Of a stretch of DNA of 64,000 nt, positions 6,001 through 12,000 are shown one piece after another (within the stretch, counting starts at the first letter, position 1; each line of letters starts with the position of its first letter). Made by a program: the position numbers. Origin of the DNA: Myxococcota bacterium (GTDB taxonomy: Bacteria > Myxococcota_A > UBA9160 > SZUA-336); assembly GCA_035498875.1 (NCBI GenBank), contig DATJZP010000052.1, forward strand, positions 21,823-85,822. Reading direction: 5' to 3'.

Positions 6001-9000
6001 GAACTCGGCCAGGATCTCCATGTTGCCGGTGTCGGGCGCGGCGCAGTTGAAGATGCGCGAGGCGATGCCGACGCGGCCCATGATCTCGGCGAGCGGCGCG
6101 TACTCCAGGTTGGTGAGTCCCGCGCCGTGCTCGGCATCGGGCAGGAACAGGTTCCAGAGCCCCAGCTTCTTCGCCTTCGCCTTGAGCTCGGTCACGATCT
6201 CGGGCGCGTGGTGCGGGTTGCCCGAGGCCTCGACCTGCTCGGCGGCGATCCGCTCCGCCGGGTAGACGTGCTCGTCCATGAAGCGCTCGAGCTGGATCTG
6301 GATCTGCTTGACCTTGTCACTGGGTTCGAAGTTCATGGCGGAATCCTATCAGTCGCCCGTGTACTTCGGCGGGCGCTTCTCGAGGAACGCTCGGACGCCC
6401 TCGCGAAAGTCGCCGCTGTGCGAGGCCAAGATCTGGTTTCGATCTTCCATCGCGATCGCCGCCTCGAGCGTGGGCGCGTCGATCGACCAGTTGAGACAGT
6501 CCTTGGTGAGTCGCACGCCGACCGGCGAGTTGCGCAGGATGTCGGCGGCCATCTCGCGGCCCACCTTCTCGAGCTCGGCGTCGGGCACGACCCGAGACAC
6601 GAGCCCGGTGGCCAGCGCGCGCGGCGCGGCGATGAAGCCACCGGTGAGTAGGAGCTCCGACGCGACCGAGGCACCGACGATGCGCGGCAGGAAATACGAC
6701 GCGCCGATGTCGCACGCGCCGAGGCCGATCCGGATGAAGGCGGCGTTCATCCGCGCCGACTCACCCGCGATGCGGATGTCGGAGGCCAGCGCCAGCGCGA
6801 AGCCGCCGCCCGAGGCGGCGCCGTGCACCAGCGCGATGAAAGGCTGCGACACGCGCCGCATCTTGATCACGAGCTCGGCGATCCGGTGCTGGCCGCGCAG
6901 GCTGTTCGAGACGCTCGCAGCCTGCGCCGGGCTGTTCGGACGCTGCGCCTTCAGGTCGAGCCCGGCGCAGAAGCCCTTGCCCGCGCCGCGCAGGATCACC
7001 ACGCGCACGCTCGGGTCGTCGTGCAGCCGGTCGAGGAACTGGTGCAGCTCCTCGACCAGCTCGGGGCTCATCGCGTTCAGCACCTCGGGCCGGTTCAGGG
7101 TGCAGAGCACGAGCCCGTCGGACTCGCGGCTCACCAACAGGGTCTTGTAAGGATCGCTCATGACTCACTCCTCGCGCGCTACGCGCGGTCGAACAACACT
7201 CCGGGATTCAAGAGCCAGCCGGGGTCGAGCTCGCGCTTGGCGGCGCGCAGCGCGCGCGCGAACAGCGGCGGCCGCTCGCGGTCGTAGCCGGGCCGGTGGT
7301 CGCGGCCGACCGCGTGATGGTGGGTGACGGTCGCGCCCTCGTCGGAGAGCACGCGCATCGCGAGCGACTTCAGCTCGCCCCACTGCTCGAGCTCGCTGCC
7401 GCGCTTCACCGGCGCCAGCAGCGAGTAGTAGGGCGCGGGTCCGTCGGGGTACACGTGGGTGAAGCGGCAGGTGAGCGTGCCCGCGCCGCAGATCCGGCGC
7501 AGCGCGTCGCCGACCTCGCTCGTGACTCGCTGGTGCAGCTTCGCGAAGCGGTCCCAGGTCACGGCCGTCTCGAAGGTCTCGGCCAGCACGCCGATCGAGA
7601 CCAGCGCGTCGCGCAGGTAGGGCGCGCCGATGAACGAGCTGCGCCAGGTGCCGGCGCTGCCCTCGCGAGTCACGCCGGCGTCGCTGCGGGTGCGGACCGC
7701 ATCGTCGGGCACGTCGCCGCCGTGGTCGCGGCAGAGCTCGACCGCGCGCCGCATCCCGGCGTCGAGATCGTGGTCGTGCGACTCGAAGCCCAGCACCAGG
7801 ATCGCCTCCCGGCCCGAGCCTCCCGCCGAAGTGAGTGCCTCGCCGGGGTCGAGCAGCCGGCAGTTCGCCGGCTCGAGCCCCGACTGCGACAGCGCGTGCA
7901 CCGCCGCCACGCCGGACTCGAAGCTCGCGAAGCGCACGCTCGCGTTCGCGCGCCGGGTCGGCCGGTCCTGGAGCCGCATCCAGGCCTCGGTGATCACGCC
8001 GAGCGTGCCCTCTGAGCCCACGAACCACCGCTCCGGCGCCGGGCCCGCGCCCGAGCCGGGCAGGCGCCGCGTCTCGAGCGTGCCCGCGGGCGTCACCACG
8101 CGGACTGACTCGACGAAGTCGTCGATGTGCGTGTAGCGGGTCGCGAAGTGACCGCCACTGCGGGTCGCGATCCAGCCGCCGAGCGAGCTGAACTCGAAGG
8201 ACTGCGGGAAGTGACGCAGAGTGAGTCCATGCGGCCGGAGCTGGTCCTCGAGCGCGGGCCCGAGCACGCCGGCCTGGATGCGCGCCGCGCGCGAGCCGCG
8301 GTCGATCTCGAGCACGCGGTCGAGCCGCGAGAGATCGAGCGTGACCACGCCGCGGTACTCACCGTCGACGTTCGTCTCGACGCCTCCCACCACGCTCGAG
8401 CCGCCGCCGTACGGAATCACCGCCACGCCCCGTCGCTCGCAGTGATCCAGCACGTCCTCGACCTGCGACTCGTCGCTGGGGAAGGCGACCCAGTCCGGCG
8501 GGTGCGCGAAGTCGCGCCGCTGCGCGCGCACCGCATCGCGATAGCTCCGCCCGTAGGCGTGCCGCGCGCGCTCCCAGGGCTCTTCGCTCGCGATCGTGGA
8601 CAGGGCGGCCGGCGGCCGCGTGCGCGGCGCCGGCAGCGCGATCTCCTCGATCCGCGGCAGCGGCGCGGGCGACAGATCCGCCCGCCCGAAGCGCTCGCCC
8701 AGCGACTGCGCAAGCCGCGCGCGCGCGCCCTCGTCCGGGCCCGCGCCCTCGTATCCCCAGCCCCAGAAGCTTCGCCTCGGCACGGGCGCATTATTGCCGA
8801 ACCGGGGGAGCAGTTTTTCAGGCCGCATGAAGAGTGCAGTCACCCCTGCTCCGGGGGTTCGCCTCGGCCCGGGGACCCGCTAGTCTGTCCTGTCATGGGG
8901 AGACCGGGGCCGATCGAGCGCTTTGCGCGCGGCGTCGGCGCGATCATTCTGCTGCCGGTGGCGCTGGTACTCTGGAGCGCCGCGGCGCTCGGCCATGCGC

Positions 9001-12000
9001 TGCTCGGCGCCACGCCGCGCCAGGCCCACCGCTACTACGTGGGCTTCGCGCGCACCTGCGTGAACGTGGCGGGCACGCGCATCGAGCTGCGCGGCCGCGA
9101 ACACATCCGCGCCGGGCAAGCCTACGTGGTGGTGTCGAATCACGAGAGCAACTGGGATCCACCGGTGATCCTCTCGTCGCTGCCGGAGCTCGTGATCCGC
9201 TTCGTGCTGAAGACGCAGCTGCTCGGCATCCCCGTGTTCGGGCCCGCGTTGCGGCGCACCGGAAACATCGCGGTCGAGCGCAAGCAGGGGAGCAGCGACG
9301 TGCGCCGGGTGCAGAGCGGCATGTCGGAGCGTCCGCCCGACGTCTCGATCCTGTTCTTCGCCGAAGGCAACCGCGCGCGCGACGGCTCCTACCGCGCCTT
9401 CAAGATGGGCGCGTTCGCGACCGCGCTCGACTTCAAGGTGCCGATCCTGCCGATCGCGGTGGCCGGCACCTTCCCGATCTGGCCGCCCGGCCGGATCTGG
9501 CTGGCGCCCGCGCCGGTGGTGCTCGAGATCGGCGAGCCGATCCCCGTCGAGGGGCTCGACGCCGGTGACCGCGTGCGGCTGCGCGACGAGACCCACCGCG
9601 TGATCGGCGAGCTGCGCGCCCGCGCGCGGGCCCGGCTGCGCGAGCAGGGGGTCGACCCGGGCGGCCTCGACTGAGCGGCGCGACCGGCGTGTAGAATGCG
9701 CGCGATGGAGCCCAAGTCGCTGCGCCTGCCCGGGACTCAGGGACTCACTCTGCATGCGCTGGAGTGGAGCCGCGAAGGCACGCTGCTGTTGTTCCTGCAC
9801 GGCTTCGGGAACGACGCCCACGTCTGGGACTGGTGCGCGCCGGTGTACGCGCCGCACTACCGGGTGGTGGCGCTCGAGCACCGCGGTCACGGCGACTCGG
9901 ACCGCGACCCCGAGGGCCGCTACGACCACGAGACCATGGCGCGGGACCTGAACGCCGCGCTCGAGTCACTGGGCGCGGCGCGCGTGGTGATCGTGGGTCA
10001 CTCGCTGGGCGGACGCGTCGCGATGCGCTTCGCGGGGCTCTGGCCCGAGAAGGTCGCCGGGCTCGTGATCGTGGACTCGGCGCCCGAGCTCGACGCGCGC
10101 GGCACGACCCGCATCCGCCTCGACGTGCAGCAGCAGGACCCGTCGTTCGCGAGCCTGAAGGACTACGAGCGCGTGCTCGCGAGACAGTATCCGGCGACGC
10201 GTGCGGACATCCTGGCCAAGCTGGCCGGCCACTGGACGCGCCAGCGCCCCGACGGCCGCTTCGAGCTGAAGCTCGATCCCGCGTTCATGCGCGGCCGGCG
10301 CGGCGCTTCCGAAGAGGAGCTCGCGCGCTGGTCGGCGGAAGAGGCCAAGATCCTGTGGGGCGCGCTCGAGAAGCTGCCCTGCCCGGCGCTGGTGGTGCGC
10401 GGCGCGGCCTCGGACGTGCTCTCGGCCGACGTCGCGGACAAGATGGCCGACGACGTCCTGAAGCAGGGCCGGCTCGAGGTGATCGCGCGCGCCGGTCACT
10501 CGGTCATGCTCGACAACCCGGAGGCCTTCGAGAAGGCGCTCACGGGCTTCGTGCTGGGCGACTGAGCCGTCTCAAGGGGCGAACTTCGGGGGCCGATCAA
10601 TGGCCGTCGGAGGATTGCCATGAAGGACGGTCGTACGCGCCAGGTCCCGGCCCCGCATGCGGAGCGGCGGGACGGCTATCTCGCGAGCCATGCGGTGTCG
10701 CTGATGTTCGCGTCGGGTCCGCTCGCCGGCAGCGAGGTCGCGCTCGACAAGCCGCGGGTGACGATCGGCCGCGACAAGAAGTGCGAGGTCGCGATCGACG
10801 ACGCCTCGATCTCGCACCAGCACGCGGCGCTCGAGCTCGGCTCGAACGGCTACCGCGTGCGCGACCTGGGCAGCACCAACGGCGTGCTCGTGAACGGCGC
10901 GCGCATGGCGCTGTCCGAGCTCAAGCACGGCGACCGGATCGCACTGGGCCAGGTCGAGCTGCGCTACGTGGTCGAGACGCGCGCCGCGGCGCCCAAGACC
11001 CACGAAGTCGACTGACCTCCAGCGCCCCCGGGTCCCTCGAATGTCTGGCACCGGCCCCCGCACCATCGGGAACTTCACGATCGAGCGCGAGCTCGGCTCG
11101 GGCGGGATGGGCGTGGTGCTGCTCGGCCGCCACCAGTCACTCGAGCGGCCGGCGGTGCTCAAGCGCCTGCGCCCGGATCTGTCTTCGAGCGCCGAGCTGG
11201 TCGAGCGCTTCGCGCGCGAGGCGCGCTCGGCGGCGTCGATCCACCACGCGAACGTGGTCGCCGTCTACGACTGGATCGCCTGGCGCGGCGAGCACTACAT
11301 CGCGCAGGAGTACGTCGACGGCGTCGACCTGCGCGCGGCGCTGGCGCAGGCGCAGCGCTTTCCGTGGCGGATCGCGGCGCTGGTGGCGCTCGAGCTGACA
11401 CGCGGGCTCGAGGCGATCCACGCGCGCGGCATGGTGCACCGCGACCTGAAGCCCGCGAACGTGCTGCTGGGCCGGAACGGCGACGTGAAGATCGCCGACT
11501 TCGGCATCGCGATCGACGCCACCAGCGACGGACTCACGCGCCCCGGTACCACCATCGGCTCGCCGCCGTACATCGCTCCCGAGCAGCTGCTCGGCGAGCG
11601 CGTCGACGCGCGCGGTGACTTGTTCGGCCTGGGCATCGTGCTGTACGAGCTGTTGTGCGGCGCCCCGCCCTACCGCGAGCCCGCCGAGGGCGAGACCGAG
11701 AGCCTGCTCACGCGCGTGCAGCGCGAGCGTTACCAGCCCGTTCGCAGCGTCGCTCGCGACGTCCCGCGCTGGCTGGTGCGGCTGGTGAAGTCACTCGTGC
11801 GCGCCAAGCCGCGCTCGCGGCCCGCGTCGGCCCAGCGCGTGCGACGCCTGCTCGAGTCACGGCTGCGCGCCTTTCCGAACGAGGCGCGGCTCGAGCTGGC
11901 GAGCTGGCTCTGGGAAGAGGGCGTGTTCAAGCCGCGCGAGGGCGACACCGTGGTGCTGTCGTCCGAGCTGCCGTCGCGCTGGCGCGCGCGGCTGGCGCGC

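Follow-up and report, generated by a model that had tools for sequence, protein, structure and literature searches.

Among the bacterial homologues of alkyl-dihydroxyacetone phosphate synthase (AGPS), MXAN_1676 of Myxococcus xanthus is the only one with genetic evidence in the literature searched. It belongs to the operon MXAN_1676-MXAN_1675-MXAN_1674, which encodes Agps, a fusion of a fatty acyl-CoA reductase (FAR) with GNPAT named 'FARAT', and an NAD-dependent epimerase/dehydratase, and its deletion lowers the ether lipids of M. xanthus (PMC9131029, PMC13012113). The other myxobacterial route, elbA-E, relies on ElbD, a multidomain protein (acyl-CoA synthetase, acyl carrier protein, FAR-like and acyltransferase domains) with no AGPS-type flavoenzyme. 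Metagenome studies have found Agps homologues to be widespread, their role outside M. xanthus being undemonstrated. Here we analyse a gene cluster of this kind in a 64-kb stretch (the window; 70% GC throughout) of a contig from an uncultured 'Myxococcota bacterium' metagenome-assembled genome (MAG). An AGPS-like FAD-linked oxidase (7179-8783, minus strand, 534 aa) is encoded divergently from a PlsC/AGPAT-type acyltransferase (8895-9674, plus strand, 259 aa), and is followed on its own strand by a crotonase-family enoyl-CoA hydratase (6349-7161, 270 aa) and an acyl-CoA dehydrogenase (ACAD) of the ACAD10/ACAD11/LvaC type (5125-6336, 403 aa). From its sequence, the module is best regarded as a variant, particular to one lineage, of the AGPS-plus-acyltransferase theme already known from bacteria, resting on an uncharacterised AGPS clade and including an ACAD10/11-type dehydrogenase.

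The membership of the 534-aa flavoprotein in the AGPS superfamily, as the original prediction had proposed, is strongly supported by its sequence and its predicted fold. The oxidase matches PF01565 FAD_binding_4 (E 1e-34) and PF02913 FAD-oxidase_C (E 1e-32) and, like those of the other genes of the locus, these Pfam matches are far above chance. In phmmer searches of the PDB it scored 224 bits against Dictyostelium AGPS (2UUU) and 182 bits against Cavia AGPS (4BBY), compared with 100 bits for mouse D-lactate dehydrogenase (mLDHD) and 86 bits for glycolate oxidase; a family profile made from 12 oxidase homologues, aligned over the full length, gave 294 and 250 bits for the AGPS enzymes versus 130 for mLDHD and 110 for glycolate oxidase. 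The structure was modelled with AlphaFold2 from 34 sequences (pLDDT 78, pTM 0.80, with stretches of low confidence, among them the GGGSS loop that is conserved in the FAD-binding domain). The top 37 Foldseek matches of this model in the PDB are all AGPS (TM 0.73-0.79, ~570-590 columns including the N-terminal domain), followed by D-lactate dehydrogenase (D-LDH) chains (TM ~0.65, ~480 columns); the greater length of the AGPS alignments indicates that the extra N-terminal domain is AGPS-like.

The catalytic residues point in the same direction (residues are numbered on the 549-aa form that begins with the ATG at 8828; in the 534-aa protein the numbers are 15 lower). R352, R447 and Y508 of Dictyostelium AGPS are important for catalysis (PMC3509576), and align to R324, R406 and Y467 of the oxidase. 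The positions of Cavia R419, Y578 and H615-617 (the HHH loop) are matched as well, R419 and Y578 being pinned by the mutant chains 4BC7 (R419H) and 4BCA (Y578F); the HHH loop corresponds to H503-H504-H505, where D-LDH-type enzymes have G-E-H. The catalytic tyrosine and histidines that the original prediction had set as a check are thus present, together with the two arginines. R324, R406, Y467 and the HHH loop are invariant among the 34 close homologues; across a 210-sequence superfamily ingroup, R324, Y467 and the three histidines are each kept in 203-205 members (205/210 for Y467 and R324) and R406 in 186, while the outgroup has E at R324, L/H at Y467 and GEH at the histidines. The W-x-GWGY motif is real and, judged by these alignments, diagnostic for the AGPS superfamily: FWGWGY occupies residues 21-26 (W22-G-W-G25), W24 is kept in 182 and G25 in 184 of the 210 sequences, in variants such as KWNGWGD (Dictyostelium-like), KWNGWGY (animal-like) and DVWGF or HKWGY (other bacterial), and the N-terminal WGWG motif was absent from the outgroup of FAD oxidases.

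That an ordinary dehydrogenase of the GlcD group (for D-lactate, glycolate or D-2-hydroxyacids) has been misread as AGPS is very improbable. The best partial NCBIfam matches are indeed GlcD models, though their score of 116 bits is far below the cut-off of 568, and the FAD-binding and cap domains are common to both groups; the AGPS score, by sequence and by profile, is nonetheless more than twice that of D-LDH. The catalytic/metal triad of mLDHD, which we take to be H398, H405 and E442 (a numbering that agrees with a constant +13 alignment offset and with the PDB title 'H405A mLDHD'), aligns to H458, P466 and H504, so that two of its three residues are lost, while the AGPS tyrosine and HHH loop are present. 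A neighbour-joining (NJ) tree was built from 227 sequences with FAD oxidases other than AGPS as the root, and a 35-taxon subset was bootstrapped 100 times; the oxidase falls inside the AGPS ingroup with 100% bootstrap. The D-lactate/glycolate oxidase identity, which would have told against the original prediction, was rejected on the profile scores, the fold ranking and the lost metal triad.

Within the superfamily, the window-type proteins form a large, bacterial, experimentally uncharacterised clade (98% bootstrap) that stands, in this sequence tree, apart from the animal-like bacterial AGPS. The latter group with guinea-pig AGPS (100% bootstrap) and include bacterial proteins ~48% identical to it (L092 and L096 among the genome loci compared), while the window protein is 30-31% identical to Cavia and Dictyostelium AGPS; the sequences of these two were rebuilt from PDB alignments and entered the tree with metagenomic relatives. 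MXAN_1676, ~42% identical to human AGPS (PMC9131029), would be expected in the animal-like clade from this reported identity, the tree having been built without its sequence. The family is very large, with at least 8000 word-sharing matches in a set of 5.8 billion proteins and 1585 clusters at 50% identity (E 1e-30 or better), and relatives 52-68% identical to the window protein come from Binatia, Acidimicrobiia, Chloroflexota, Alphaproteobacteria (Afipia), Marinobacter, Halomonas and Streptomyces. No characterised member of the window-type clade was found in the literature searched.

Other bacterial members provide clues to the chemistry of the superfamily. Among the representatives, two proteins of ~1100 aa (P0298, P0369) fuse an AGPS-like enzyme to GlpD (DAO plus DAO_C), the glycerol-3-phosphate dehydrogenase that makes dihydroxyacetone phosphate (DHAP), and two others (P0246, P0266) carry an N-terminal acyl-CoA-binding domain (ACBP) ahead of the AGPS-like part. 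These fusions connect bacterial AGPS homologues to DHAP and acyl-CoA; no GlpD gene was found near the AGPS-like loci fetched, the link being seen solely as fusion proteins. In the animal-like bacterial clade, AGPS genes nearly always have a short-chain dehydrogenase/reductase (SDR) gene behind them: in seven loci (L089, L090, L091, L092, L094, L095, L097; for example 9521-10315 in L092) it runs into or touches the AGPS stop codon, as in translational coupling, and in two more (L099, L102) it lies 156-180 bp downstream. Since the step after AGPS in the eukaryotic pathway is performed by an SDR-type acyl/alkyl-DHAP reductase, these SDRs are, by analogy, candidate alkyl-DHAP reductases. L096, of the same clade, has a PF01553 acyltransferase downstream of AGPS; a FAR-acyltransferase fusion like MXAN_1675 was considered there and rejected, as two separate open reading frames (ORFs; 207 and 289 aa) are present. 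Fusions, SDRs and the L096 acyltransferase support the view that the whole superfamily works in DHAP-lipid chemistry.

The genes and motifs named in the original prediction are all confirmed in the window sequence. The 554-aa FAD-linked oxidase with its W-x-GWGY motif corresponds to the maximal ORF (7179-8843, minus strand, GTG start), which has FWGWGY near its N-terminus. The true start is probably the GTG at 8783, because a 100%-identical protein (P0001, from a 'Myxococcota bacterium' MAG) is publicly annotated with 534 aa, and 34 homologues have their N-termini ~3 residues ahead of the FWGWG motif. The predicted gap of ~50 bp to the acyltransferase consequently holds for the maximal ORF (51 bp) and lengthens to 111 bp from the probable start; this divergent intergenic region (8784-8894) presumably houses both promoters. 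No sigma-70 consensus or terminator was detected in it, a scan that is uninformative at 70% GC in a myxobacterial-type genome. The opposite-strand acyltransferase with HxxxxD and NHESNWD is a PF01553 protein (E 7e-23) whose stop at 9674 is the end that had been predicted, and the acyl-CoA dehydrogenase and enoyl-CoA hydratase genes are both present downstream on the AGPS strand. The oxidase is separated from the hydratase by 17 bp and the hydratase from the dehydrogenase by 12 bp, and with such gaps the three minus-strand genes probably constitute one operon. On the plus strand, a gene for an alpha/beta-fold serine hydrolase (9696-10565, 289 aa; Abhydrolase_1/6, Hydrolase_4) follows 21 bp after the acyltransferase.

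The acyltransferase carries motifs I-IV as NHESNWD, GNIAVER, FAEGNR and VPILPIAV, preceded by an N-terminal hydrophobic segment. Its NCBIfam matches are AGPAT/PlsC, OlsA and YihG models, with 81.6 bits against TIGR00530 (cut-off 102.95) and 45 bits against the E. coli-type PlsC model (cut-off 501); no PlsB or glycerol-3-phosphate acyltransferase (GPAT) model was matched, and its sole PDB match is Thermotoga maritima PlsC (5KYM, E 2e-21). PF01553 was the only Pfam domain in its 259 aa, and neither a GPAT/GNPAT-type architecture nor a FAR fusion was found. The enzyme is thus of the AGPAT/PlsC type, and its parsimonious role would be the sn-2 acylation of 1-alkyl-glycerol-3-phosphate, or remodelling together with the esterase. 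The synthesis of acyl-DHAP to feed AGPS, which had originally been proposed, is not supported by these matches and is less likely. Homologues come nearly all from uncultured Myxococcota. One related MAG, JBHHVJ01, has two paralogues of the subfamily, 51% identical to each other, which argues against a single essential housekeeping PlsC copy. The neighbouring hydrolase has a GHSLG nucleophile elbow and its PDB relatives are esterases and hydrolases; an epoxide-hydrolase identity was rejected on account of this serine nucleophile. It adjoins the acyltransferase in L001-L004, L007 and L083.

The conservation of the pairing was followed by searching the window neighbours by tblastn against 80 genome loci of the AGPS-like family. 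The divergent AGPS-like/PlsC-esterase layout recurs in L003/L004 (AGPS ~80% identical) and L007 (AGPS 68%, PlsC 53%, hydrolase 59%), and L083, found from the PlsC homologues, keeps the core arrangement with a 65% identical PlsC. In L008, a PlsC gene (43% identical) and a second PF01553 gene lie directly upstream of the AGPS-like gene. Two remoter PlsC homologues (57% and 51%) have unrelated contexts, and a hidden Markov model of the PlsC subfamily, searched within 6 kb of the family loci, returned nothing further besides weak, distant matches in L051 and L052 (Acidimicrobiales). The acyltransferase pairing therefore amounts to about 6 of 82 loci (the window, L003/L004, L083, L007 and L008). 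The general AGPS-PlsC pairing that the original prediction implied is not borne out: the linkage is real, but restricted to one monophyletic sublineage of Myxococcota ('delta'), where it constitutes moderate evidence of coupling. Elsewhere in the window, two tandem HtrA/DegP-type serine proteases (133-3629, plus strand) are syntenic with the cluster in L002, L007 and L083, which shows that the gene order of the region is conserved past the lipid genes.

The nature of the dehydrogenase had been overlooked. Its best PDB matches are Mycobacterium abscessus 4HR3 (358 bits) and ACAD11 (8V3U/2WBI, 346-348 bits), versus 173 bits or less for ordinary ACADs. R252, H260-C-M-R263 and D379 align to R626, H634, R637 and D753 of mouse ACAD11; the HCMR motif, the upstream arginine and a catalytic residue that is Asp instead of Glu are unique to ACAD10/11 and LvaC according to Rashan et al. 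(PMC12440821). By these sequence criteria the window ACAD is of the ACAD10/ACAD11/LvaC type and no generic beta-oxidation enzyme. Characterised members convert 4-phosphoacyl-CoA into 2-enoyl-CoA following the action of an APH-type kinase, and this product, being the substrate of enoyl-CoA hydratases, fits the neighbouring hydratase gene, whose protein matches ECH_1 (E 4e-58) and reaches no NCBIfam equivalog. An APH kinase gene was found in the 64-kb window neither by Pfam scans nor by phmmer. L083 does have one (8639-9652, plus strand), which closes the facing operon PlsC-esterase-APH and whose best PDB relatives include the ACAD11 kinase domain; at that position the window has instead an FHA-domain protein (10620-11015, plus strand) and a Ser/Thr kinase (11041-12348, plus strand).

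ACADs bearing the HCMR motif also adjoin an AGPS-like gene in L015 (divergent) and L005 (with a HAD gene before the ACAD), and one lies 7 kb away in L043. The type recurs beside the AGPS-like genes of L083 and L008 as well; the ACAD of L008, immediately downstream, is 75% identical to that of the window, on a contig that ends before the HCMR motif. In L005, the HAD-family hydrolase gene (6009-7957, plus strand) is directly upstream of the ACAD10/11-type gene and ~2 kb from the AGPS-like gene, a pair reminiscent of the HAD and ACAD domains found in ACAD10. In total, about nine of 82 loci have an ACAD10/11-type gene beside a member of the AGPS-like clade, in at least three arrangements, which, as a rough estimate, is several-fold over the chance expectation. 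The additional partners are sporadic: across the family loci, phmmer found an APH kinase in L083 only, and HAD genes in L005 and L016 only.

These neighbourhoods may be related to the findings of a preprint of 2025-26, in which mammalian ACAD10 is tied to ether-lipid salvage and its kinase and HAD domains are described as an alkylglycerol kinase and an alkyl-acetyl-glycerophosphate phosphatase, the kinase domain co-occurring with AGPS in 55% of AGPS-containing organisms; how these ether-lipid activities relate to the dehydrogenase of ACAD10 was left unexplained (PMC13596139). Neither in this preprint nor in the literature searched was a description of AGPS-ACAD gene adjacency found. Very tentatively, and as an idea that is more probably wrong than right by a wide measure, the AGPS-like/ACAD10/11-type operon may be the equivalent in prokaryotes, with separate proteins, of the recently proposed connection of ACAD10 to ether lipids; relatives add an ACAD10-kinase-like APH gene or a HAD gene to the locus. 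If so, the ACAD10/11 dehydrogenase may act directly in ether-lipid metabolism; alternatively, the AGPS-like clade may use an alcohol that does not come from a FAR, for instance one derived from hydroxyacyl-CoA by the ACAD and hydratase pair, and its product would then be an undescribed class of bacterial ether lipid.

Starting from the observed family membership, conserved catalytic residues, gene order and phylogenetic distribution, the reading that we favour, with moderate confidence, combines an AGPS-like enzyme forming the ether bond, a PlsC-type enzyme for sn-2 acylation or remodelling, and an ACAD and hydratase pair channelling acyl-CoA; its substrates and the coupling between its parts are what we infer from sequence. 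The oxidase would bind acyl-DHAP, and Tyr467 would take the pro-R proton at C1; the carbanion would attack flavin N5 with release of the fatty acid, and attack by an alcohol would then give the ether-linked alkyl-DHAP. The PlsC-type enzyme would acylate 1-alkyl-glycerol-3-phosphate at sn-2, or participate in remodelling together with the esterase, and the ACAD10/11-type dehydrogenase and the hydratase may direct a modified acyl-CoA (4-phosphoacyl-CoA in the characterised relatives) into beta-oxidation. Pfam scans, which covered essentially all plausible genes of the 64-kb window, detected no CDP-alcohol transferase, ElbD-like protein or desaturase. As neither a FAR nor a DHAP reductase is encoded locally, the alcohol source and the reductase step would be encoded outside the window, and a local source of fatty alcohol is missing. 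The canonical aerobic module (FAR, GNPAT and AGPS) is consequently not found at the locus, where the adjacent acyltransferase is AGPAT-type.

Several observations weigh against this reading. The same scans found no FAR, GNPAT-type enzyme, GlpD or APH kinase anywhere in the window and no SDR next to the cluster. The window-type clade, whose function is predicted from sequence, is only ~30% identical to characterised AGPS, and many of its hosts (Streptomyces, Afipia, Binatia) have, to our knowledge, not been reported as ether-lipid producers. About 74 of the 80 family loci have no nearby acyltransferase, and the window PlsC is about equally similar to an unlinked paralogue (P0188, 55%) and to the linked one of L007 (52.5%) in the same MAG, JBHHVJ01. 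The PlsC-linked loci group together as a single clade (81% bootstrap in the NJ tree), and in relatives the synteny takes in neighbours such as HtrA, so that shared ancestry alone could explain the adjacency. The commonest neighbours in the 80 family loci are hydratases (~21), SDRs (17), luciferase-like oxidoreductases (16), ACADs (~8) and CoA-transferase III (8), which fit general acyl-CoA metabolism as well as lipid synthesis. Finally, the dehydrogenase domain of ACAD10 is largely dispensable for ether-lipid salvage in Caenorhabditis elegans (PMC13596139).

In a rival reading, the adjacency would be inherited synteny without coupling, the AGPS-like enzyme, hydratase and ACAD having a catabolic or detoxifying role on substrates derived from acyl-CoA or hydroxy acids, possibly with a substrate that is not acyl-DHAP, and the PlsC-esterase genes forming a separate pair for phospholipid remodelling. 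We consider this possible, with a probability well short of even. It draws on the recurrence of hydratase, SDR, ACAD and CoA-transferase III neighbours, on the close spacing of the three minus-strand genes, on an ACAD that has all the residues defining the 4-phosphoacyl-CoA-processing type, on a distribution reaching phyla without known ether-lipid makers, and on a window rich in esterases and lipases. It accounts less well for an oxidase that keeps all the residues of the AGPS-specific covalent flavin chemistry and the AGPS-only N-terminal domain, and for the GlpD and ACBP fusions linking bacterial clades to DHAP and acyl-CoA; moreover, we know of no alternative substrate for any AGPS homologue. 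A minimal two-gene ether-lipid module, in which the PlsC-type enzyme would take the GNPAT role (DHAP to acyl-DHAP) and hand its product to the AGPS-like enzyme, appears unlikely. The divergent adjacency is kept across the clade down to 65-68% AGPS identity, the PF01553 fold and HxxxxD motif are common to GNPAT and PlsC, acyltransferases recur near AGPS homologues elsewhere (L096 and MXAN_1675 of M. xanthus), and the two acyltransferases of L008 could serve the DHAP and sn-2 steps. Against these stand a 259-aa single-domain protein with an AGPAT-type NHxSxWD motif and TIGR00530 and T. maritima PlsC as its best matches, lacking the GPAT/GNPAT-type C-terminal region and a FAR fusion, the absence of the pairing from most family loci, and the lack of an alcohol-forming reductase nearby. 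The reading with an AGPS-like ether-bond enzyme and sn-2 acylation or remodelling by PlsC is the one that we retain.

An AGPS homologue in a Myxococcota MAG will not surprise a specialist; the useful leads are the distinction of the clade and its ACAD10/11-type neighbourhood. In metagenome surveys, AGPS homologues of bacteria routinely serve as markers of the potential for ether lipids or plasmalogens, and many such matches fall in this separate clade, with other gene partners and no alcohol-supplying reductase, so that inferences of lipid potential call for calibration by biochemistry. Should the clade indeed form ether bonds, aerobic ether-lipid synthesis would extend to Binatia, Acidimicrobiia, Streptomyces and others. 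The ACAD10/11-type neighbourhood also offers a tractable bacterial system for the question, raised in 2025-26, of the 4-hydroxy-acid versus the ether-lipid activities of ACAD10/11.

Other genes of the window deserve mention in their own right. Long open frames without Pfam match occur at 3674-5128 and 14545-15810 (both minus strand), and at the position of the first of them the relative L002 encodes a 444-aa protein, likewise without Pfam match. Ester- and lipid-hydrolase genes are unusually dense between 12345 and 35129: a 694-aa protein with weak lipase-like matches, a carboxylesterase, a dienelactone hydrolase, an Abhydrolase_3 protein, a GDSL lipase, a phosphotriesterase and an alpha/beta hydrolase. 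One open frame (41494-43590, minus strand) joins an ABC-transporter ATPase to a tryptophan-halogenase/FAD_binding_3-like domain, an unusual fusion, and adjoins permease and NMT1-like binding-protein genes; in another (52551-53861, minus strand), a DHBP synthase domain is fused with a pair of lumazine-binding repeats like those of riboflavin synthase. At 56532-58274 (plus strand) the window encodes one more FAD_binding_4 protein, unrelated to the first and of the sugar-1,4-lactone oxidase (ALO) type; the genes after it are for two dioxygenases of the PhyH family and a thiolase-like protein.

Compared with known systems, the locus resembles the M. xanthus operon in its Myxococcota genome and in an AGPS-superfamily flavoenzyme that adjoins a PF01553 acyltransferase, with a presumed alkyl ether glycerolipid precursor as product. 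It differs in that the window protein, at ~30% identity to Cavia AGPS (MXAN_1676 being reported at ~42% to human AGPS), belongs to the separate, 98%-supported clade; in that its partner, encoded on the other strand, is a small enzyme of the AGPAT type and not a co-directional FAR-GNPAT fusion; and in having a hydratase and an ACAD10/11-type dehydrogenase in place of the FAR and the epimerase. With the eukaryotic AGPS of Dictyostelium (2UUU/2UUV) and Cavia (4BBY), the window protein shares, as judged from sequence and model, the three-part fold, the N-terminal domain, the tyrosine, the two arginines, the HHH loop and a WGW-type motif; it is only ~30% identical to them and shorter (534 versus 584-658 aa), its residues ~329-398 align poorly, and it has no peroxisomal context. 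The elbA-E cluster of myxobacteria is likewise a bacterial alkyl ether lipid route that includes an AGPAT-like acyltransferase function, although no ElbD-like protein is encoded in the 64-kb window.

Similar relations hold for the partner enzymes. T. maritima PlsC (5KYM) and the bacterial AGPATs resemble the window acyltransferase in length, in the HxxxxD motif, in a motif III that contains EG and in an N-terminal segment that associates with the membrane, whereas the window enzyme scores under the trusted cut-off of TIGR00530, has EGNR instead of EGTR in motif III, and belongs to a subfamily that occurs almost exclusively in uncultured Myxococcota, at least one MAG having more than one copy. 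The window ACAD has the HCMR motif, the upstream arginine and the catalytic Asp of mammalian ACAD10/ACAD11 and of LvaC from the lva operon of Pseudomonas putida, and the relative L083 adds an ACAD10/11-kinase-like APH gene in the facing operon; unlike ACAD10/ACAD11, the window ACAD is a stand-alone protein of 403 aa to which neither a kinase nor a HAD domain is fused, and the AGPS-like gene is its direct partner in the operon.

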